Shown: one piece after another, positions 7,896 to 24,961 of the stretch
Layout: every line of letters starts with the position of its first letter
How positions within the stretch are numbered: the stretch's first letter is position 1
Assembly (NCBI GenBank): GCA_963663995.1
Contig: OY760660.1
Span: 150,001-182,000 of the forward strand
DNA length: 32,000 nt
Direction: 5' to 3'
DNA from: Erysipelotrichaceae bacterium
Lineage (GTDB): Bacteria; Bacillota_I; Bacilli_A; Erysipelotrichales; Erysipelotrichaceae
Program-made: the position numbers and the translations under genes
Notes under the pieces: generated by a model
Database searches by the model: none
Told to the model about the DNA's origin: nothing
What the model saw: only the letters and a program-made list of their open reading frames with translations

Positions 7896-8033
7896 TCAAA
7901 TCTCCTAAATGACGATAAACGTCAAGTACAGTATAAATGATGTATTCATCTTTGTGTATCAAATGACTTTCTATGCGTTTATGATGAAAGTATAAAGATG
8001 TTTGTTTAAACTGAAATTAAATAAGGAGCAATT

Positions 8034-8837
8034 ATGTTAAATAAGAAATTAGAATTATTAAATCATAAGTGGATACCACAAATTGGTTTTGGGACATGGA
8101 TGATAGAGAATGAAGAAGCTGCACAAGCTGTAAGTACAGCAATTGAAATTGGTTATCGTCATATAGATACAGCACAGAATTATAAAAATGAAGAAGGCGT
8201 TGGCTTAGGCATTCTTAAAAGTGGCGTAAATAGAGAATCAATCTATATCACCACAAAAATAAGAGCTCGTTATAAAACATATGAAGAAGCCAAAGAATCA
8301 ATTCAAGAATCGCTAAAGAAACTACAGGTTGATTATATTGATTTAATGTTAATTCATTGGCCACAACCTTGGGACGATAAAGGATCTAAAAATCGTTATT
8401 TTAAGGAAAATCTAGCTGTTTGGAAAGCCATGGAAGAAGCCTATGAAAGAGGTGAAATAAAAGCACTTGGTGTTTCAAATTTCACAATTGAAGATATTCA
8501 AAATATTCAAGTTAATGCTTTTATAAAACCAATGGTCAATCAAATTGAAGTACATGTTGGAAATACACCAATTGAACTCATTAATTTTTGTCAAAAAAAT
8601 GAAATAATCGTAGAAGCATATTCCCCGATTGGTCATGGTGAATGCTTAAATGATTTAGACTTACAAAAAATGGCAGAAAAGTACAATGTGAGTGTAGCTC
8701 AACTATGTATCCGTTATACGACACAACTGGGGTGTGTAACTTTACCAAAATCAAGTAAAAGAAATCACATTGAATCAAACGCAAAAGTTGATTTTGTGAT
8801 TTCAAATGAGGATATGGAAATATTAATGAATAAATAA
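8034..8837 (+). CDS. aldo/keto reductase (2,5-diketo-D-gluconate reductase-like, ~270 aa class)
   Basis: HIDTAQNYKNE..ITTKI..MLIHWP catalytic tetrad context. AAGGAG SD. Confidence 0.9.
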   Translation: MLNKKLELLNHKWIPQIGFGTWMIENEEAAQAVSTAIEIGYRHIDTAQNYKNEEGVGLGILKSGVNRESIYITTKIRARYKTYEEAKESIQESLKKLQVDYIDLMLIHWPQPWDDKGSKNRYFKENLAVWKAMEEAYERGEIKALGVSNFTIEDIQNIQVNAFIKPMVNQIEVHVGNTPIELINFCQKNEIIVEAYSPIGHGECLNDLDLQKMAEKYNVSVAQLCIRYTTQLGCVTLPKSSKRNHIESNAKVDFVISNEDMEILMNK

Positions 8838-8859
8838 AAAAGCGAAATTTCGCTTTTTT
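8836..8859. terminator. bidirectional intrinsic terminator
   Basis: Perfect palindrome AAAAAAGCGAAATTTCGCTTTTTT between two convergent AKR genes. Confidence 0.65.
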
Positions 8860-8865
8860 ACTTGA

Positions 8866-9786
8866 TTAAGGTAATGGTTTACCTTGTGCTAAGTAGAGTT
8901 CATACCACTCTTCACGAGTGATTGAAAACTTTGTAGCTTGGCAACTTTCCTTTAAATGTTCAATAGAAGTTGTACCTAAGATGACTTGCATATTAGCAGG
9001 GTGTCTAAGTAAGAAGGCAATCGCTATTGCTGCTTTATCGGCATCATATTTTTTTGCTAAACGATCTAAAACATCATTTAGTTTTTTATAATCTTTATGA
9101 TTAATAAAGGTTCCTTCAGCCCAACTAGCTTGAATAGGGCTCCATGCCTGCAAAGTAATATCATTTAAGCGACAGTAATCAAGAACACTACCATCACGAT
9201 CTTGAATATTCTTATCAATTGTATTCATGAATATGCCTGTATCAAAGATACCAGAGTGAACAATTGATGCTTGTATTTGGTTAAAGAGAAGAGGGAATTT
9301 TACATATTTTTGAAGTAGTGCAATTTGGGCTGCAGAGTAGTTGGAAACTCCAAAGTTTTTAACGAGTCCCTTTTCATATAATTCATTAAAAGCATCAGCC
9401 ATTTCAAGTGGATCAGCTAAGGCATCTGGACGATGGATAAGTAAGACATCGATATAGCTTGTATGTAATCTTTCTAAAGAATCTTCAACACTTTTTAAGA
9501 TATGTTCTTTCGAAGAATCATACATTTTTCCAGGGATGATTCCACATTTGGTTTGGATAATCATCTTTTCTCTAAGTTCTGGATTACGTTTTAAGACTTC
9601 GCCAAAAAGTTCTTCAGATTTTCCTCGACCATAAATATCGGCGTGATCAAAGAAATTAATACCGCAATTGAGAGCTTCTTTGACTAAGATTTCGACTTCT
9701 TCAACTGTTTTAGAGGCAATACGCATACATCCAAGTGTTAATTGTGAAACCTCTAGATTTGAATTTTTGATTTGAATTGTTTTCAT
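8866..9786 (-). CDS. aldo/keto reductase (YdhF-like oxidoreductase class)
   Basis: FFDHADIYGRG..IQTKCG..LLIHRPD tetrad context. AAGGA SD. Confidence 0.9.
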   Translation of the reverse strand: MKTIQIKNSNLEVSQLTLGCMRIASKTVEEVEILVKEALNCGINFFDHADIYGRGKSEELFGEVLKRNPELREKMIIQTKCGIIPGKMYDSSKEHILKSVEDSLERLHTSYIDVLLIHRPDALADPLEMADAFNELYEKGLVKNFGVSNYSAAQIALLQKYVKFPLLFNQIQASIVHSGIFDTGIFMNTIDKNIQDRDGSVLDYCRLNDITLQAWSPIQASWAEGTFINHKDYKKLNDVLDRLAKKYDADKAAIAIAFLLRHPANMQVILGTTSIEHLKESCQATKFSITREEWYELYLAQGKPLP

Positions 9787-11863: not shown

Positions 11864-12955
11864 ATGACAGAAAAAGAAAAGGAACTTCTCGCAATAATAG
11901 AGAAGAATCCACAAATCTCACAAAATGATTTAGCCAAACGATTGAAGATGACACGATCGTCTGTTTCAGTACATATCAATAATTTATCTAAAAAAGGATA
12001 TATTGCTGGTCGTGGCTATGTCTTAAACCCAAAAGACTATGTCATGGTTATTGGCGCAGCTAATACTGATATTCTTGGTTTTTCAAGTGATACCATTATT
12101 CCCAAGGATTCAAATCCTGGTCATATCAAAATATGTTTAGGGGGAGTAGGGCGTAATGTATCTGAGAACTTAGCCAGACTGCAAACTGATGTTAAGTTTA
12201 TAACAACCATTGGTGATGATGTTTATGGTCGCCATTTACTTGATCAATGCATATCCTATGGAATTGATATGAGACATGCGTATTCAATGAAAGGTGAAAT
12301 ATCATCAATCTATATGGCTATTATGAATAAAGAAGGTTCAATGGAACTTGCTTTGTCTGATATGACTACACTGGATAAGTTGCCTAATACGGTTTTAAAT
12401 CAAAAATCAGCATTAATTAAACGTGCTCAACTTGTCATGGTTGATACGGGACTTTCAAAAAATAGTTTAGAATATATCACAGCAAACTTCACAGATGTAG
12501 ATTTATATTTAGATCCTGTCTCAGTTGGAAAAGCTGAGCATGTTAAACATTTGATATCATCTTTTCATACCATTAAGATGAATCGATTAGAATGCGAATA
12601 TTTATCCGACATGCCCATTAAAAATATGCAAGACTTGGTTAAGGCTTCAGATTATTTTATGAATATCGGAATTCAATCAGTCTTTATTACATTAGGTAAA
12701 GATGGTGTCTTTGCGAGAGATCGAAATCAATTCTATTATCAAGCAGCAAGATCATTAGATATTGTTAATGAAACTGGGGCAGGCGATGCCTTTATGGCAG
12801 GTATTATCTATAGTCGTCTTCATGGCTATAAACTTAAAGAAACCTGTGAGTTTGCCAGTGCTTTAGCAGAGATTGCATTGATGAGTGAAGAGACAGTAAG
12901 CCCACTTGTAAGTATTGAAAATGTTGAAAAGAACTTAAAAGAAATAAAATCATAA
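11864..12955 (+). CDS. psuK: pseudouridine kinase (PfkB family) with N-terminal winged-helix DNA-binding domain
   Basis: Residues 1-55 (LLAIIEKNPQISQNDLAKRLKMTRSSVSVHINNLSKKGYI) form a wHTH. The rest is a PfkB kinase (VIGAANTDI, NETGAGDAF). Immediately upstream of psuG. Confidence 0.8.
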   Translation: MTEKEKELLAIIEKNPQISQNDLAKRLKMTRSSVSVHINNLSKKGYIAGRGYVLNPKDYVMVIGAANTDILGFSSDTIIPKDSNPGHIKICLGGVGRNVSENLARLQTDVKFITTIGDDVYGRHLLDQCISYGIDMRHAYSMKGEISSIYMAIMNKEGSMELALSDMTTLDKLPNTVLNQKSALIKRAQLVMVDTGLSKNSLEYITANFTDVDLYLDPVSVGKAEHVKHLISSFHTIKMNRLECEYLSDMPIKNMQDLVKASDYFMNIGIQSVFITLGKDGVFARDRNQFYYQAARSLDIVNETGAGDAFMAGIIYSRLHGYKLKETCEFASALAEIALMSEETVSPLVSIENVEKNLKEIKS

Positions 12956-17942: not shown

Positions 17943-19373
17943 ATGATTAAAACAGTATTTCCAAAAGATTTCTTCTGGGGAGGAGCAGTTGCAGCCAATC
18001 AACTAGAAGGATGCTACCTTGAAGGTGGTAAAGGTTTGTGTATGGCAGATATCAACGAATTTAAAGCTGATATTCCACCAGAAAAAAGATCAAATGCAGA
18101 GATGACATCCAAAGAAGTTGAATATCATCTAAATAACGATCCAGCACGATATCCAAAACGTGTAGGGATTGATTTTTATCACACCTATAAAGAAGATTTA
18201 AAACTTCTACGTGAAACAGGGATGAATTCATTTAGAACGTCTATTAACTGGGCACGTATATTTCCAAAAGGTGATGAGTTAGAACCAAATGAAGAAGGTT
18301 TAAAATTCTATGATGATTTGATTGATGAGATTATTAAGAATGATATGGAACCACTTATTACTATATCTCACTATGAGATGCCGTTATATTTAGCTACTGA
18401 ATATGATGGATGGGCTAATCGAAAACTCATCGATTTCTTTATCCGTTTTTCTGAAGTCTTACTTAAACGCTACAAAGGTAAAGTTAAATATTGGATTCCA
18501 GTAAACCAAATTAATTTAATAGGTCATGAATCATTTAATCATTTAGGTGTATTAGAAGATAAAGTTGATAATTTAATGGAAGCCAAATATCAAGCGGTTA
18601 TGAATGAAATGGTTGCTTGTGCTAAAGTGACCAAACTTGCCCATGAAATTGATCCTGAAAACAAGATTGGGATGATGTTTTGTCATGGGTTAACATATCC
18701 AGCAAGTTCTAAGCCTGTAGATGTGTTCTATACAATGAAGCATAATCAAATGGAATATTTCTTTGGCGATGTATTACTTAGAGGGATTGTACCAGGTTAC
18801 GCATATCGATTCTTTAAAGATAATAATCTAAATATTGAAATTTCAGATCAAGATAAAGAAGATCTTAAGAATACAGCAGATTATTGTTCATTCTCTTATT
18901 ACTATACAAAGATTACGGATGAAGAAAGTTATAAGAATGATGATGGGACAAAGAAAAATCCATACCTTAAAGCAAATCCTTGGGGTTGGACAATTGACCC
19001 GTTAGGAATGCGAGTCGCTTTAAACGAATACTATGATCGTTACCAAGTACCTCTTTATATTACTGAAAATGGATTTGGTCAATATGATCAACTCACTGAA
19101 GATAGACAAGTTCATGATGATTATCGTATCGATTATCTAAGAGAACATGTTTTAGCAATTGAAGAAGCGATTAAAGATGGGGTCGATGTTAGAGGTTATT
19201 ATCCTTGGGGTCCAATTGACTTAGTGTCATGTTCTTCATCAGAAATGGAAAAACGTTATGGTTTCATCTATGTTGAACTAGATAATAAGCTTGAAGGTAG
19301 TGGTGAAAGACTTAAAAAAGATTCATTCTATTGGTATCAAAAAGTAACTTCTACAAATGGTGGTGAAATTTAA
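17943..19373 (+). CDS. bglA: GH1 6-phospho-beta-glycosidase with Gln in place of the acid/base Glu
   Basis: 476 aa, collinear with my memory of E. coli BglA. The nucleophile motif YITENGFG and the phosphate-binding SSSEMEKRYGFIYV are present. The NE(I/P) acid/base motif reads WIPVNQINL (Q189, CAA at 18507-18509). GGAGA SD. Confidence 0.9.
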   Translation: MIKTVFPKDFFWGGAVAANQLEGCYLEGGKGLCMADINEFKADIPPEKRSNAEMTSKEVEYHLNNDPARYPKRVGIDFYHTYKEDLKLLRETGMNSFRTSINWARIFPKGDELEPNEEGLKFYDDLIDEIIKNDMEPLITISHYEMPLYLATEYDGWANRKLIDFFIRFSEVLLKRYKGKVKYWIPVNQINLIGHESFNHLGVLEDKVDNLMEAKYQAVMNEMVACAKVTKLAHEIDPENKIGMMFCHGLTYPASSKPVDVFYTMKHNQMEYFFGDVLLRGIVPGYAYRFFKDNNLNIEISDQDKEDLKNTADYCSFSYYYTKITDEESYKNDDGTKKNPYLKANPWGWTIDPLGMRVALNEYYDRYQVPLYITENGFGQYDQLTEDRQVHDDYRIDYLREHVLAIEEAIKDGVDVRGYYPWGPIDLVSCSSSEMEKRYGFIYVELDNKLEGSGERLKKDSFYWYQKVTSTNGGEI

Positions 19374-19379
19374 TGAAAT

Positions 19380-19405
19380 AAGTGTGGAGGAATCTACACT
19401 TTTTT
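19380..19405 (+). terminator. intrinsic terminator of the PTS-GH1 operon
   Basis: AAGTGTGGA-ggaa-TCTACACTT (one G-U pair) followed by T5, 7 nt after the stop codon. Confidence 0.65.
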
Positions 19406-19810
19406 CATAATAAAACAAATGAAAAACTTAATAATTCTATGTGTACTAGACTCCAATAAAGAAAGCTTTACAGTTAAGAAACATGTGAAGGGATGGGAAA
19501 AAGTGTCCATCAAATAATTCCATAAATCAAAGTAATAAAATTCCCCATGGCTGATGGAAGTGAAGAAACGAAGCATTAGTTCATTCATAAAAGATTTATG
19601 GATAATATATGATGCAAAATAAAAATCAGTTAAAAATACGAGAATCGCAGCCCAAATTGCAGTAAAATTAGTGAAATTATAATAATGTGGGTTAAAAAAA
19701 CTCATTTTATTTATCGTAATTTGATACAAAAATTGGCTCACAATTAATGGTGCATAAATGACGCTATTTGTAGAAATCTTGTTAAATTGTTATCATATGT
19801 ATAGATTTCA

Positions 19811-19830
19811 TGCATAAAAATATTTATGCA
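19811..19830. promoter_or_regulatory. 20-bp perfect palindrome (candidate operator) upstream of kamA
   Basis: TGCATAAA-aata-TTTATGCA. Its right arm overlaps the -35 position of a candidate -10 TAATAT (19847-19852). An extra half-site TGCATAAA lies at 19751-19758. Confidence 0.35.
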
Positions 19831-19952
19831 ATTGTTGAAAATGCGTTAATATATATGCTTTTTTAACCAAAGATTGGCTAATTTTTTTTTATGTATTTCA
19901 ATAAATAATTGATTTTTTTAGAGTAAATGAAATCTAGAAGGAGAGTGATTAT

Positions 19953-21158
19953 TTGAATAAGATTAAAAATGAATTATTTAAGAATGTTCCAGAAGAAAAA
20001 TGGAATGATTGGAAGTGGCAAGTTTCTAATCGAATAATGGATTTTGATGAATTGAGAGGATATGTAAACTTAAAAAGTGAGGAAAAAATTACTAATTTTC
20101 CATTAAGGATGGCTATTACACCATATTATTTAAGTTTAATGAATCTAAATGACAAAAATGATCCAATTCGTAAGCAAGCAATTCCTACTAATAATGAAAC
20201 TCAAGTATACTCAAGTGATTTTGATGATCCATTGGGTGAAGACGAAGACATGGTAGTACCTGGATTAGTACATCGTTATCCTGATCGTGTTTTATTACTT
20301 GTAACCGATAAATGCAGTATGTATTGTCGCCATTGTACGCGTCGTCGTTTTGCAGGACAAAATGATAATAGCTTACCTATACAACAAATAAATGGTGCAA
20401 TTGAATATATTAAAAAGAATCCGCAAATACGAGATGTCATATTATCTGGAGGGGATCCATTATTATTACCTACCGATGCAATTGAATCAATATTAAAAAA
20501 ATTACGAATGATTGAACATCTTGAGATTATTCGAATAGGCTCACGCGTGCCAGTAGTTTTACCTCAGAGAATAGATGATGAATTAGTAGATATGTTAAAA
20601 AAGTACCACCCACTTTATATAAATACACATTTTAATCACTATAAAGAAGTGACCCCTGAATCTAAAGAAGCATGTGAAAAGTTAGCAAATAGTGGTATTC
20701 CATTAGGTAATCAATCAGTTTTACTTAAAGGTATAAATGATTGTGTTAACATCATGAAAAAACTTGTACATGAGTTGTTGATGATTAGAGTTAAGCCTTA
20801 CTATATTTATCAATGTGATTTATCGAAAGGGATAGAGCATTTTAGAACACCAATTTCAAAAGGAATAGAAATTATGGAAGGTTTGAGAGGACACACATCT
20901 GGGATGGCAGTCCCAACCTTTGTTGTGGATGCCCCTGGTGGCGGTGGTAAAATTCCACTCATCCCAAACTATTTAGTCTCAAGGACAAATGATAAAACAG
21001 TTTTAAGAAACTTTAGAGGTAACTTTAGTGTTTACGAAGGACCAAAGAACTATGATGGTGAATGTTCATGTGAACTTTGTAGAAATTCTCAAGATACTAC
21101 GGTTGAAGGAATTTTAGGTCATCTAGTTTCTAACCATTTAGTTGGTAATAAAGCTTGA
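19953..21158 (+). CDS. kamA: lysine 2,3-aminomutase (radical SAM, PLP)
   Basis: 401 aa with a TTG start 9 nt after GGAG. CSMYCRHCTRRRF radical-SAM cluster, PYYIYQCDLS, FVVDAPGGGGK (PLP Lys) and a C-terminal Cys cluster. Nearly collinear with my memory of Clostridium subterminale KamA, including both substrate-amine-binding Asp residues (QCD, VVD). Confidence 0.9.
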   Translation: MNKIKNELFKNVPEEKWNDWKWQVSNRIMDFDELRGYVNLKSEEKITNFPLRMAITPYYLSLMNLNDKNDPIRKQAIPTNNETQVYSSDFDDPLGEDEDMVVPGLVHRYPDRVLLLVTDKCSMYCRHCTRRRFAGQNDNSLPIQQINGAIEYIKKNPQIRDVILSGGDPLLLPTDAIESILKKLRMIEHLEIIRIGSRVPVVLPQRIDDELVDMLKKYHPLYINTHFNHYKEVTPESKEACEKLANSGIPLGNQSVLLKGINDCVNIMKKLVHELLMIRVKPYYIYQCDLSKGIEHFRTPISKGIEIMEGLRGHTSGMAVPTFVVDAPGGGGKIPLIPNYLVSRTNDKTVLRNFRGNFSVYEGPKNYDGECSCELCRNSQDTTVEGILGHLVSNHLVGNKA

Positions 21159-22354
21159 TTAAGACAATTACCATTGTTGGTGGAGGTAATAGTGCACATG
21201 TACTCATTCCCTTATTGTCAAAATCACAATTGACAGTTAATTTATTAACTAGAAAGCCTGATAAATGGTCAAATAATATTGAACTTGACTATATCAAACC
21301 AAATGGTGATTTTGTAGAAAGCATGAGTGGTGAAATTAGCAAAATATCTTCTAATCCATATGACCTCATGCCTCAATCAGATATTATTATCTTATGTATG
21401 CCTGTTAATTCATATCGAGAAATGTTACATAAAATTGCCCCATTTATAAATAAGAATAAGAAAGTTTATGTTGGAACTGTTTATGGACAAGGTGGATTCA
21501 ACTGGATGTGTAATGAAATTGTTGAAAAATATGAATTAGATAATCTCGTTTCTTTTGCGATAGGATTAATTCCTTGGATTTGCAGAACCATAGAATATGG
21601 TAAAAAAGGTCTTGTATATGGCGCAAAACCAGTTAATTTAGTGGCTGTTAATCCGAAATCGGAGTTCAACGTTTTAAATGAAATTTTGCTTTCACCAATT
21701 GTTGAACAATGGTTTGGTCATGGAAGTTTTAAATGTGTAAATCACTTTATCTCATTAACTTTAAGTGTTGATAATCAAATCATTCATACATCAAGAATGT
21801 ATGGACTTTATAAAAAGACAAAAGGAATTTGGAATCAATTAGAAGATGTACCTTTATTTTATAAGGATTTTTCTAATGTATCTGCAAAGATATTAAAAGG
21901 TTTAGATGAAGATTATTCAGCAATTAGAGAAACGATTAAAAAAGAATTCAAACATAACGATTATAAATGGATGATGGATTATTTAACACAAGATAATTTA
22001 ACAAACCTTAGCTCTAATCAAAATATTCTAGAAACCTTTGAAAATTCTAGTACACTTGGTGCAATTAAAACCCCTGTAATCCAAATGAATAATCATTGGG
22101 TTCTTGATCGTCATCATCGTTTTTTCTATGATGATGTATTTTATGGTTTATGTATTGCTAAATGGTTTGCACAAGAACTTAATTTAGTGTGCCCGCATAT
22201 TGATGACTTGCTCATGTGGACTCAAGAATATTTAAATGAACCTATTATTGAAAATCATCAACTAAATTGTGATGAAGCAATGAAAAAAGAACCATTTAAG
22301 TATGGCATTCCTAGTGTTTATGGTTTTACTTCAATTGAACAAGTTATAGATTAA
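21155..22354 (+). CDS. opine dehydrogenase family protein (octopine/nopaline dehydrogenase-like)
   Basis: 399 aa. The TTG start overlaps the kamA TGA (TTGA, 21155-21158). TIVGGGNSAH dinucleotide motif, IPWICRTIEYGKK, NQIIHTSRMYG (catalytic His), PLFYKD, RFFYDDV and LLMWTQEYL parallel my memory of scallop octopine dehydrogenase (CGGGNGAH, LPWACRIKEFGRK, VHPAILFG, PLFYQG, RYLTEDIP, LIMWAQEKI). Confidence 0.8.
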   Translation: MIKTITIVGGGNSAHVLIPLLSKSQLTVNLLTRKPDKWSNNIELDYIKPNGDFVESMSGEISKISSNPYDLMPQSDIIILCMPVNSYREMLHKIAPFINKNKKVYVGTVYGQGGFNWMCNEIVEKYELDNLVSFAIGLIPWICRTIEYGKKGLVYGAKPVNLVAVNPKSEFNVLNEILLSPIVEQWFGHGSFKCVNHFISLTLSVDNQIIHTSRMYGLYKKTKGIWNQLEDVPLFYKDFSNVSAKILKGLDEDYSAIRETIKKEFKHNDYKWMMDYLTQDNLTNLSSNQNILETFENSSTLGAIKTPVIQMNNHWVLDRHHRFFYDDVFYGLCIAKWFAQELNLVCPHIDDLLMWTQEYLNEPIIENHQLNCDEAMKKEPFKYGIPSVYGFTSIEQVID

Positions 22355-22403: not shown

Positions 22404-23549
22404 ATGAAAAACTTAACCATTCTGTGTGCACCAGATTCCTTTAAAGAGAGCATGACTGCCAAACAAGCTTGTGATGCGATGGAAAAAGGCATCCATCAAA
22501 TATATCCAGAAATTAAAGTCATAAAAGTTCCGATGGCTGATGGAGGTGAAGGGACTGTGGATGCACTAGTTCATTCAAGTCATGGACAATTTGTACATGT
22601 GAATGTGCATGATCCACTAGATAGAATGATTCAATCCAAGTATGGTCTTTTAGGTGATAAAGAAACAGCCGTCATAGAAATGGCTGCCGCAAGCGGATTA
22701 GAGTTACTAGATGCAAAAGAACGTAATCCTTATTTAACCTCTACTTATGGTACAGGAGAATTGATATTAGATGCCTTGGATAAAGGTGTTAAGAAACTAC
22801 TTATTGGTATTGGTGGAAGTGCAACTAATGATGGTGGGAGTGGTATGTTAGAGGCATTGGGTGTTCGTTTTTATGATAAAAATAATCAAGTTTTAAAAAT
22901 GAATGGTAAAGCATTGAAGGATGTTGAGAAAATTGATATTAAGCACATAGATTCACGTTTAAAGGATGTACAAATTGATGTTGCATGTGATGTCAGTAAT
23001 ACTTTATGTGGAATAGAGGGTGCGTCCTACATCTATGGACCTCAAAAAGGTGCTAATTGTGAGATGGTTGAGAATTTAGATAAATATTTAAAACATTACG
23101 CTGAAATCATTAAAAAAGATTTAAAAATGAATGTCTTAGACATAAAAGGTGGAGGAGCAGCTGGTGGTTTAGGTGTTGCTTTATTTGCTTTTATGAATGC
23201 TAAACTTCAAAAAGGAATTGATTTAGTAATCAAATATTCTGATTTAGAAAATAAATTAAAAGATGTTGACTTAGTGTTGACTGCTGAAGGGAAGATAGAT
23301 CATCAAACGCGGTTTGGTAAAACTCCTGTAGGTGTGTCACTGTGTGCTTTGCGTCACAATATTAAAACTATTGCATTTGCAGGGAAAGTTGCCGTAGAAA
23401 AAGATGAATTTATGGATTGTGGGATGATTGATATCTACCAAATTACACCAAATAACATAGACTTAGAAACAGCCTTAAAAGAAGGTCAAAAAAATTTAGA
23501 GAAAACCGTTTCAAATTTTATGAAAACATACAAAAAGCTAGCTAATTAG
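22404..23549 (+). CDS. glxK: glycerate kinase
   Basis: 381 aa. PDSFKES, PMADGGEGT, IGIGGSATNDGG and GGAAGG motifs are typical of GlxK/GarK. No SD; TGgCATAAT (22389-22397) sits immediately upstream. Confidence 0.9.
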   Translation: MKNLTILCAPDSFKESMTAKQACDAMEKGIHQIYPEIKVIKVPMADGGEGTVDALVHSSHGQFVHVNVHDPLDRMIQSKYGLLGDKETAVIEMAAASGLELLDAKERNPYLTSTYGTGELILDALDKGVKKLLIGIGGSATNDGGSGMLEALGVRFYDKNNQVLKMNGKALKDVEKIDIKHIDSRLKDVQIDVACDVSNTLCGIEGASYIYGPQKGANCEMVENLDKYLKHYAEIIKKDLKMNVLDIKGGGAAGGLGVALFAFMNAKLQKGIDLVIKYSDLENKLKDVDLVLTAEGKIDHQTRFGKTPVGVSLCALRHNIKTIAFAGKVAVEKDEFMDCGMIDIYQITPNNIDLETALKEGQKNLEKTVSNFMKTYKKLAN

Positions 23550-24604
23550 TTGGCTTTATTATTGAAACGAGATAGAAATTCAGCGCGTGATTTGGTGTTA
23601 AGTTTTGAGTAGATACTTGAGATATGTTTTTTAACAGTTGATTCTGAAATAAAGCATTGTTCAGAGATCTCGGAATTACTTAAACCATTAAGTAAGAAAC
23701 GGGCAATTTCATGTTCACGATTTGATAGTATTCTTAAGGCTTCAGTATTTTTTGAATTTGTCATCATGAAAGTGCTTAAAGTTGTACTGTTATTAATTAA
23801 TACATTTTCTCTGGCTTCTGCAATTAAATCTTCAGCTTTGACTTGCTTGTTTTTTAGATCACTATAACCTATATTCAATGATAGTTTTAAGGGTGAATTA
23901 TTGTAATAGTAGGTGTTTTGAATGGCTTTACGATTAATCGCTTTAGCAATACTATAAGCTCTTTGTTTATTTGTGTTATGAAGAACCATGAAGAAACGTG
24001 GACCATTCAAACGTGTGATAAAGTCTTTCTCAGATACACAATAGTTTTGTAGTAAACGAGCCGTTTGTGTAATCATCATATCACCAGCTTTTTGAGAAAA
24101 CTTGTCATTGAGTTCAAGCATATGATTAACACTAAAATAGATTAGTGTTAAAGGATTTGTAGACTCGACAATACTTTCTTCAAGTTTTTTAAGACCATGA
24201 TGATACTTATATGCACCGGTTATAGAATCCTTTAAGATTTCATTTTGAATTTCTTCAATCATGTCATGAAATGTACCATCTTTAAAATCATCAATGTATA
24301 AGGAACCGTGTTGGGTAATATCTTTTATGAGTTCGATTATCATTTTTCGATTTTCGTGCATGATGGGTAAAGCAACATACATAATCGTATGACTGTTTTT
24401 AAAAACAATTTTGAAAAATGGTTCGTTGTTTATAAATGACTCTTTAGGAATAACAATATCGAACTCATTTTCTTTGATCCAATGATATGTTTTCTTTTTA
24501 TTCACATCAAAAACTGTGACCGCATCAAACATCTTTCGATCATCTATAAGTTTAAGAATGTAATCATTTTGAATGAGGATATCAAAGATTTCTGTTTTTT
24601 CCAT
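23546..24604 (-). CDS. transcriptional regulator: unknown N-domain + degenerate GGDEF domain + LuxR-type HTH
   Basis: C-terminus LSNREHEIARFLLNGLSNSEISEQCFISESTVKKHISSIYSKL is a LuxR/FixJ HTH. The middle region DSITGAY..FSVNHMLELNDKFSQKAGD..RLNGPRFFMV..NIGYS follows the GGDEF fold, but GGDEF reads NGPRF and the metal-binding Asp residues are lost. Confidence 0.8.
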   Translation of the reverse strand: MEKTEIFDILIQNDYILKLIDDRKMFDAVTVFDVNKKKTYHWIKENEFDIVIPKESFINNEPFFKIVFKNSHTIMYVALPIMHENRKMIIELIKDITQHGSLYIDDFKDGTFHDMIEEIQNEILKDSITGAYKYHHGLKKLEESIVESTNPLTLIYFSVNHMLELNDKFSQKAGDMMITQTARLLQNYCVSEKDFITRLNGPRFFMVLHNTNKQRAYSIAKAINRKAIQNTYYYNNSPLKLSLNIGYSDLKNKQVKAEDLIAEARENVLINNSTTLSTFMMTNSKNTEALRILSNREHEIARFLLNGLSNSEISEQCFISESTVKKHISSIYSKLNTKSRAEFLSRFNNKAN

Positions 24605-24818: not shown

Positions 24819-24855
24819 AGGGGCGTAAAGAAGCATAAGCTTTCTTTACAATTTA

Positions 24856-24929
24856 GGTTTGTATAATCGCAGCAAGTATACGTGGGCTGCAAGTCTCTAC
24901 CTCGCTACCATTAGCGAGACTACTAAACC
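24856..24929 (+). promoter_or_regulatory. purine riboswitch aptamer, guanine class (C at the specificity position)
   Basis: The three-way junction core matches the xpt G-box from memory: UAUAAUCGC (J1/2 + P2 start), AAGUCUCUACC (J2/3), GACUAC (J3/1, C at 24920). P1 is 24856-63/24921-29 (one bulged U). P2 is GCAGC/GCUGC. P3 is CUCGCUA/UAGCGAG. Lies in the purE leader. Confidence 0.75.
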
Positions 24930-24961
24930 ACATGTTTTTTGCATGTGATTTAGTTGTTTTG

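Follow-up and report, generated by a model that had tools for sequence, protein, structure and literature searches.

The locus considered here raises the question of what product is made when a lysine 2,3-aminomutase and an opine dehydrogenase are encoded by two overlapping genes. These genes, kamA and odh, lie in a stretch of 32 kb from an Erysipelotrichaceae bacterium (assembly GCA_963663995.1, contig OY760660.1, positions 150,001 to 182,000), the whole of which is referred to below as the window. Our results support kamA-odh well as a genetic module, whose chemistry is predicted from sequence. We suggest that the best explanation is a two-gene biosynthesis of an opine derived from beta-lysine, and we would put the probability of this reading at roughly one half. 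The open reading frames, their overlap and the resulting operon structure agree with a preliminary description of this DNA, and the two genes are as follows.

19953-21158, + strand: kamA, L-lysine 2,3-aminomutase (radical SAM enzyme dependent on pyridoxal phosphate, PLP), 401 amino acids, TTG start; matches TIGR03820, PF12544 and PF04055
21155-22354, + strand: odh, octopine-type opine dehydrogenase homologue (ODH), 399 amino acids, TTG start; matches PF02317, aligns with octopine dehydrogenase and has the corresponding fold in an AlphaFold2 model

Identity of the two enzymes

KamA scored 562.4 bits against TIGR03820, the equivalog model of lysine 2,3-aminomutase (AblA), which is above the cut-off of 525.4, and it remained below the cut-offs of the models for the glutamate enzyme (466 versus 650), the arginine enzyme (397 versus 600) and EpmB (253 versus 369). 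It also matches LAM_C (PF12544) and Radical_SAM (PF04055), and it aligns at high identity and near full length with the Clostridium subterminale enzyme 2A5H (residues 5-391, E 2e-171). The motifs CSMYCRHC, QCD and VVDAPGGGGK match 2A5H column for column and are present in all 12 of the other full-length paired KamAs that were checked; the TRRR arginine after the CxxxCxxC cluster and the C-terminal CxCxxC are kept as well. In 2A5H, Asp293 and Asp330 hold the epsilon-ammonium group of lysine, and Lys337 binds PLP. The model score, the alignment and the kept motifs together make L-lysine the likely substrate and beta-lysine the likely product, as had been proposed from the motifs in the preliminary description. 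Moreover, since both aspartates that hold the free epsilon-ammonium are kept, a lysine substituted at N-epsilon would be an unlikely substrate.

The partner enzyme matches PF02317 (Octopine_DH) over residues 195-359 with 75.2 bits, against a cut-off of 30, and contains GGGNSAH (the Rossmann GxGxxA, residues 9-15), IIHTSRMYG and RFFYDD. A profile of its subfamily matches the octopine dehydrogenase of Pecten maximus (OcDH, 3C7A) over the full length (E 1e-33), so that Gln118, His212, Arg324 and Asp329 of OcDH align with Q112, H211, R322 and D327; the last three are each at least 97% conserved among 164 subfamily sequences. The roles of the His-Asp dyad and of Arg324 in OcDH have been described, His212 holding the carboxylate of the amino substrate (PMC2924402). 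Trp278 of OcDH, a side-chain binder, aligns with W272. The AlphaFold2 model (predicted local distance difference score 92.4) has the two-domain opine dehydrogenase fold, and its top Foldseek matches in the Protein Data Bank are all opine dehydrogenases (3IQD/3C7D, TM score 0.79; 1BG6, TM 0.70/0.80); after OcDH and the Arthrobacter enzyme CENDH come, at greater distance, the staphylopine, pseudopaline and yersinopine dehydrogenases. Profile, catalytic residues and fold thus confirm that odh encodes an opine dehydrogenase. The closest solved relative, an animal-type octopine dehydrogenase, is missing from the bacterial enzymes (CENDH, CntM) with which it had been compared at the outset.

In Rossmann folds, the residues after strand beta-2 indicate whether NADH or NADPH is preferred. 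At this place Asp37/Glu38 of OcDH align with Arg33/Lys34 of ODH, which suggests a preference for NADPH and hence a reaction that would run in the reductive direction.

The gene pair across genomes and in its own surroundings

A scan of species-representative genomes for ODH yielded 80 loci, and a metagenome scan and contig look-ups added paired loci; labels such as L004 denote these comparison loci. In 14 loci kamA immediately precedes odh in the same orientation, with junctions that range from a 4-nt overlap (-4) to +40 nt; these loci belong to Erysipelotrichaceae, Christensenellaceae and further Clostridia, cold-seep and spring members among them. The flanks fall into at least six unrelated contexts, which argues that the two genes travel together and are retained together. 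Furthermore, the pairwise identities of KamA and ODH are correlated (r = 0.90, 13 pairs), and a neighbour-joining tree built from 123 KamAs places all 16 of the ODH-linked ones in a single clade of 24 leaves, outside which lie both of the other KamAs that were checked, one GNAT-linked and one fermentation-linked. The nearest relative, an Erysipelotrichaceae metagenome-assembled genome (MAG), is 79% identical to the window in ODH and 86% in KamA. A metagenome scan with an alignment of the Firmicutes ODH clade returned mostly non-Firmicutes members and one new paired locus, L084; a tblastn search of plasmids found only distant, uninformative ODH-family genes (21-25% identical) of rhizobia, Burkholderia and Proteus.

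It might be argued that such adjacency reflects chance or genome compaction with no functional link, as both families are common individually and in most genomes odh is not accompanied by kamA. The constant order and strand over 14 loci in at least six unrelated contexts, the short junctions, the co-divergence of the two genes and the monophyly of the ODH-linked KamAs make this extremely improbable, and we regard chance adjacency as excluded. The preliminary description had called for a survey of related genomes, in which absence of the pairing would have spoken against its proposal; the pairing was found to be conserved, and a functional coupling of kamA and odh appears highly probable.

The known partners of KamA are found elsewhere. 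Among the nearest KamAs outside the clade, that of Tepidibacter mesophilus (L169, 7101-13414; 68% identical) has a GNAT acetyltransferase gene immediately upstream and an OpuA-type ABC transporter (CBS ATPase and OpuAC permease) 1.5 kb downstream. This locus appears to be a bacterial osmoprotection locus based on N-epsilon-acetyl-beta-lysine. That of a Clostridiaceae contig (L170; 66% identical) stands in the order kce-kdd-kamA-...-kamD-kamE. The 32-kb window contains no gene for GNAT/AblB, KamDE/Kdd/Kce, EpmA or CntL, so the absence of these partners beside kamA, which had been remarked on before, holds; nor are there lysine-fermentation genes within 6-8 kb of any ODH-linked kamA, or an acetyltransferase in the paired loci.

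Within the window, the limits of the operon are marked by two further features.

19775-19952, + strand: conserved region upstream of kamA, presumed promoter or leader, with an inverted repeat and AGGAG; recognised by conservation in L004
22355-22387, + strand: terminator-like hairpin separating odh from the glycerate kinase gene; recognised by its folding energy against shuffled sequences and by a counterpart in L004

The TTG start of kamA follows the AGGAG ribosome-binding site by 8 nt, and the TTG start of odh shares its last two bases with the TGA of kamA (TTGA). The hairpin after odh has a folding energy of -13 kcal/mol (z -3.8 against shuffles) and a counterpart with a different stem sequence at the equivalent spot in L004. 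We consider the two-gene operon sound on account of the TTGA overlap and this hairpin with its counterpart. The hairpin was not picked up by a strict consensus terminator scan, and weak read-through from odh into the glycerate kinase gene is possible. The pair had been described as isolated; upstream this is correct, in that the gap of 579 bp before kamA (19374-19952) holds only an unsupported antisense reading frame, and downstream it is true with the qualification that the hairpin, although real, escaped the strict scan.

The gap begins after a cellobiose-type phosphotransferase system operon with a glycoside hydrolase family 1 (GH1) glycosidase gene, which ends at 19373 and whose terminator it holds. 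The approximately 180 bp nearest kamA (19775-19952) are about 83% identical to the kamA upstream region of L004, the closest relative, where the gap is about 270 bp long; the 400 bp farther from kamA are not matched in L004. The conserved part contains a perfect 8-bp inverted repeat at 19811-19830 (TGCATAAA-N4-TTTATGCA), whose arms in L004, as read from the alignment (TGCGCAAA...TTTGTGCA), differ yet remain able to pair; the repeat may serve as an operator or form a hairpin in the RNA. A riboswitch or other leader RNA was considered and rejected, as positions 19300-20050 had no Rfam match at E <= 1; a search at the gathering score found nothing near kamA in nine sources. When the 450 nt preceding each of 13 kamA genes were compared by blastn, conservation was seen between close relatives only, with no common motif. 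The antisense reading frame (19394-19741, - strand) would encode 115 hydrophobic, aromatic-rich residues; it has no Pfam family match, its region lacks a counterpart in L004, and it is probably not a gene.

On the 3' side, 50 bp from odh, lies the glycerate kinase gene (glxK, 22404-23549), followed by a convergent gene (23546-24604, - strand) that overlaps its end by 4 nt and encodes 352 amino acids with a GGDEF domain and a C-terminal LuxR/GerE helix-turn-helix. The remaining window is low-GC chromosome (~33%) with genes for aromatic amino-acid biosynthesis, aldo-keto reductases, pseudouridine kinase/glycosidase and pur genes. An ordinary purine riboswitch aptamer (RF00167, 50 bits, 24839-24942, + strand) stands ahead of purE-purK-FGAM synthase-purC, with a counterpart in L004 at 12564-12667.

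The neighbouring glycerate kinase gene bears on a catabolic explanation, a direction that the roles first considered for the pair did not include. ODH would then oxidise an imported N-carboxyalkyl-lysine (N-epsilon-carboxymethyl- or N-epsilon-carboxyethyl-lysine, or an opine derived from glycans) to L-lysine and glyoxylate or pyruvate, KamA would feed the lysine into a beta-lysine-based fermentation, and glycerate kinase would help to clear the glyoxylate carbon. A glycerate kinase gene also directly follows odh in L004 (9250-10404), and in L006 (1909-7342) a cluster of the glyoxylate-to-glycerate type (Dak2, glycerate kinase, D-2-hydroxyacid dehydrogenase, a xylose-isomerase-like TIM barrel resembling hydroxypyruvate isomerase, and a thiamine pyrophosphate enzyme) is found 0.66 kb upstream of a solo odh. 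Opine dehydrogenase reactions are reversible, and the Arthrobacter CENDH was reportedly isolated as a catabolic enzyme. Solo ODHs would be explicable if both products enter central metabolism, and substrates might be supplied by the carboxymethyl- and carboxyethyl-lysine that circulate as glycation products (PMC8592953) or by carboxyethyl-lysine in bacterial glycans (PMC10609480). However, none of the 14 paired loci has kamDE, kdd, kce or kal nearby, in contrast to L170, whose true fermentation kamA sits among such genes, and the conserved neighbours of the pair include no uptake transporter. Arg33/Lys34 suggest NADP(H), which would be unusual for a catabolic oxidation, and other members of the ODH subfamily stand in biosynthetic polysaccharide loci. 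Moreover, glxK is adjacent to odh only in the lineage of the window and L004, with the terminator-like hairpin in between; it was for this reason rejected as a general third member of the operon. Taken together, we consider the catabolic explanation improbable. The glycerate kinase context may also hint at glyoxylate as the 2-oxo acid used by ODH, or be a coincidence.

Relatives of the dehydrogenase without an aminomutase

The ODH of the window belongs to a subfamily with 45-60% identity across more than ten phyla, including Bacteroidota, Chloroflexota, Zixibacteria, Acidobacteriota, Planctomycetota and Verrucomicrobiota, which in a library clustered at 50% identity comprises about 25 representatives above 35% identity. 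Outside the Firmicutes clade, none of its loci has kamA within 8 kb. Three arrangements were found among the members without kamA. In the first, odh stands alone in variable contexts. In the second (16 loci), it lies beside a gene for a distant ATP-grasp-like protein with weak similarity to RimK/LysX/PurD and no Pfam match below E 1e-3; in Zixibacteria and related MAGs (L027, L028, L029, L033, L034, L043) this gene is directly upstream of odh, and the available flanks show no recognised polysaccharide genes. In the third, odh is beside a TupA-like ATP-grasp gene (PF14305) in polysaccharide loci, where genes for GT4 glycosyltransferases, UDP-glucose dehydrogenase, an NAD-dependent epimerase similar to UDP-glucuronate epimerase, a flippase and the initiating sugar transferase Bac_transf are found. 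The loci with odh in a polysaccharide context, next to either a TupA-like or a distant ATP-grasp-like gene, are given in one line.

Mostly ~8001-9200 in each locus: odh in polysaccharide context, L035, L037, L040, L044, L047, L051, L053, L058, L060, L064, L070, L071, L074, L078 and L082

Two subfamily copies of odh lie in tandem in L039 and in L015. Ancylomarina longa also has two copies, one solo (L031) and the other in a polysaccharide locus beside an ATP-grasp-like gene (L047).

Opines are known constituents of surface glycans: the O14 antigen of Providencia rustigianii contains N-epsilon-(1-carboxyethyl)-N-alpha-(galacturonoyl)-L-lysine, and alanopine occurs in P. alcalifaciens O35 (PMC10609480). 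Because the gene content of these polysaccharide loci, ATP-grasp ligases included, would fit the synthesis of such residues, we infer that the non-Firmicutes ODHs may make opine residues for surface glycans. Our literature search found no gene assigned to the carboxyethyl-lysine or alanopine of O-antigens and no relevant paper on opine dehydrogenase, ATP-grasp and polysaccharide in combination.

The composition of the subfamily is the first of several points that weigh against beta-lysine as the amine of the window enzyme. Of the 164 subfamily ODHs, 147 have no kamA within 8 kb, and 85 positions, including the stretch around the catalytic histidine, are at least 97% conserved over the same 164 sequences. 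Since most members are kamA-less while nearly all active-site residues are invariant, ODH may use a common substrate unrelated to beta-lysine. Solo odh genes also occur inside the Firmicutes clade (L006, L011, L012, L083 and L165). In L165 (5667-6001), odh is intact with its own AGGAGG/ATG start and there is neither kamA nor a remnant of it, so that ODH is not strictly dependent on an adjacent KamA; the locus is otherwise syntenic with the paired loci of Christensenellaceae type (L163, L166, L167, L003), which share the order AMP-binding, ACT, alanine racemase, 5-FTHF cyclo-ligase ... Cons_hypoth95, CTP_transf_like. L165 thus represents a natural presence/absence polymorphism of kamA. Further points of the same kind are that the NADPH preference is deduced from an alignment rather than from a cofactor-bound structure, that no transporter, regulator or salt-linked gene is conserved beside kamA-odh, that the glycerate kinase genes of the window and L004 and the cluster of L006 hint at catabolism, and that opine dehydrogenases, according to a 2024 survey, couple alpha-keto acids with alpha-amino acids (PMC10787698).

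It would be tempting to seek a beta-lysine signature in the residues that set the Firmicutes clade apart from the remaining subfamily. The two differ at 22 positions; near the W272 helices the Firmicutes clade has D280, N281, T283, N284, T294 and N297 versus E, R, S, Y, S and T elsewhere, and position 240 is S in the clade and D in the others. The loss of an arginine (R281N) and of an aspartate (D240S) would be the change expected for a different amino substrate. These residues were nevertheless rejected as a signature, as the solo ODHs of L006, L165 and L083 share them; they track phylogeny, not adjacency to kamA, which also belongs to the points against.

These data could be accommodated by a single reaction common to the whole subfamily and independent of beta-lysine, for example the carboxyethylation of L-lysine or alanine with pyruvate, KamA being co-expressed for a related but separate purpose or acting on or after the ODH product. 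The compactness and strong conservation of the subfamily across phyla, the prevalence of members that are solo or beside ATP-grasp ligases in polysaccharide loci, the known glycans with N-epsilon-(1-carboxyethyl)-L-lysine or alanopine (PMC10609480), and the retention of odh without kamA in L165 would all be consistent with it. On the other hand, the translational coupling, the dedicated KamA clade and the co-divergence over 14 loci argue for consecutive steps, the aspartate pair of KamA makes an N-epsilon-substituted lysine an unlikely substrate, and the Firmicutes clade carries the charge-changing R281N and D240S near the substrate helices. We therefore consider this explanation, too, to be improbable. 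The pairing that had been proposed for this locus holds as a conserved feature of the Firmicutes clade, and not as a property of the dehydrogenase, which is not specific to KamA.

Predicted product and comparison with known systems

We favor the two-step biosynthesis of a beta-lysine opine because the operon is dedicated and co-evolving and because it parallels the GNAT-kamA arrangement. KamA would convert L-lysine to (3S)-beta-lysine by a radical-SAM/PLP 1,2-amino shift, and the coupled ODH would join a 2-oxo acid, most likely pyruvate or glyoxylate, to one of the amino groups of beta-lysine by reductive condensation, probably with NADPH. The predicted product is an N-(1-carboxyalkyl)-beta-lysine. 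Classical opine dehydrogenases use the amine next to the carboxylate. For the reacting nitrogen, these enzymes would point to the amine beside the carboxylate and the glycan precedent to the epsilon-amine. We infer beta-lysine as the amine of ODH, and in the same way the identity of the 2-oxo acid, the reacting nitrogen, the NADPH preference and the physiological role.

As the condensation would add a carboxylate while leaving the nitrogen protonatable, cationic beta-lysine would become a net-neutral double zwitterion, and this might serve as a metabolically inert compatible solute in anaerobic Firmicutes. What speaks for such a role is that the charge outcome would be the same as that of acetylation by AblB, namely a net-neutral, poorly metabolisable compound; by this analogy an osmolyte is the likeliest role of the predicted opine, though one that we hold to be less probable than not. 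A metallophore role was rejected, as there is no CntL and no transporter nearby.

The preliminary description was aware of no account of a beta-amino-acid opine, and the literature searched here likewise contained none, nor any published link between lysine aminomutase or beta-lysine and an opine dehydrogenase. We speculate, at somewhat less than even odds, that kamA-odh makes the first beta-amino-acid opine and provides a second route to a neutral beta-lysine solute, and that the same ODH subfamily is an unrecognised source of glycan opines. If true, beta-lysine metabolism would gain a small molecule and a partner enzyme that are both new, and the chemistry of opine dehydrogenases would reach beyond alpha-amino acids to beta-amino acids, a point relevant to the biocatalytic reductive amination of polar amines. 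The gene pair would then be a two-gene marker of an unseen metabolite in uncultured anaerobic Firmicutes (Christensenellaceae, Erysipelotrichaceae and sediment Clostridia). In addition, the survey of the subfamily points to a gene that could account for the carboxyethyl-lysine and alanopine long known from O-antigens.

Several known systems share one of the two enzymes. In the CntKLM systems (staphylopine, pseudopaline, yersinopine), an opine dehydrogenase of the same fold catalyses the last step (Foldseek matches 6C4L-6C4T), but the match to the window ODH is weaker (TM about 0.6, 12% identity), and neither a nicotianamine-synthase-like CntL nor genes for metallophore export or import were found in the window or related loci. 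Beta-lysylation of elongation factor P by EpmA/EpmB does not fit either, given the score of KamA below the EpmB cut-off (253 versus 369 bits) and the lack of an EpmA-like gene nearby. The clostridial lysine-fermentation cluster (kamA, kamDE, kdd, kce, kal) begins with the same enzyme, its KamA in L170 being 66% identical, but neither the 32-kb window nor the paired loci contain kamD/kamE, kdd or kce. Opine-bearing glycans are comparable in so far as the non-Firmicutes subfamily ODHs in polysaccharide loci would fit the synthesis of such residues, whereas the locus of the window has neither glycan genes nor a ligase.

For the dehydrogenase itself, the closest solved structure is the OcDH of Pecten maximus (3C7A/3C7C/3C7D/3IQD), with which the two-domain fold, GxGxxA, the His-Asp dyad, Arg324, Gln118 and Trp278 are matched. 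However, the window ODH is only about 19% identical to it and has Gly137 in place of the guanidinium-binding Glu142, and a conserved insertion of four residues extends its substrate-binding helix region after W272; the scallop enzyme uses L-arginine, an alpha-amino acid, and NADH. Another parallel is the N5-(carboxyethyl)ornithine synthase, which attacks the side-chain amine of ornithine or lysine and belongs to the alanine dehydrogenase/PNT type, not to PF02317. The enzyme of Lactococcus lactis (EC 1.5.1.24) is NADPH-dependent and has been used for the enzymatic synthesis of carboxymethyl-lysine (PMC8592953). The resemblance to the predicted reaction is that here, too, a Firmicute enzyme joins a 2-oxo acid to a diamino acid reductively with the help of NADPH, but its substrates are alpha-amino acids, and it is not known to be accompanied by an aminomutase.

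A system similar in its logic is AblA-AblB (yodO/yodP type). It makes N-epsilon-acetyl-beta-lysine, a compatible solute of methanogens and some bacteria. In contrast to L169, neither the window nor the paired loci contain an acetyltransferase, and the partner is an NAD(P)H-dependent opine dehydrogenase instead of a GNAT enzyme, so that the predicted product would be a secondary-amine dicarboxylate and not an amide. The KamA of the window nonetheless passes the AblA equivalog model TIGR03820, and in both cases the aminomutase is accompanied by one operon-mate enzyme that modifies, or here would modify, an amino group of beta-lysine and thereby cancel its net positive charge.

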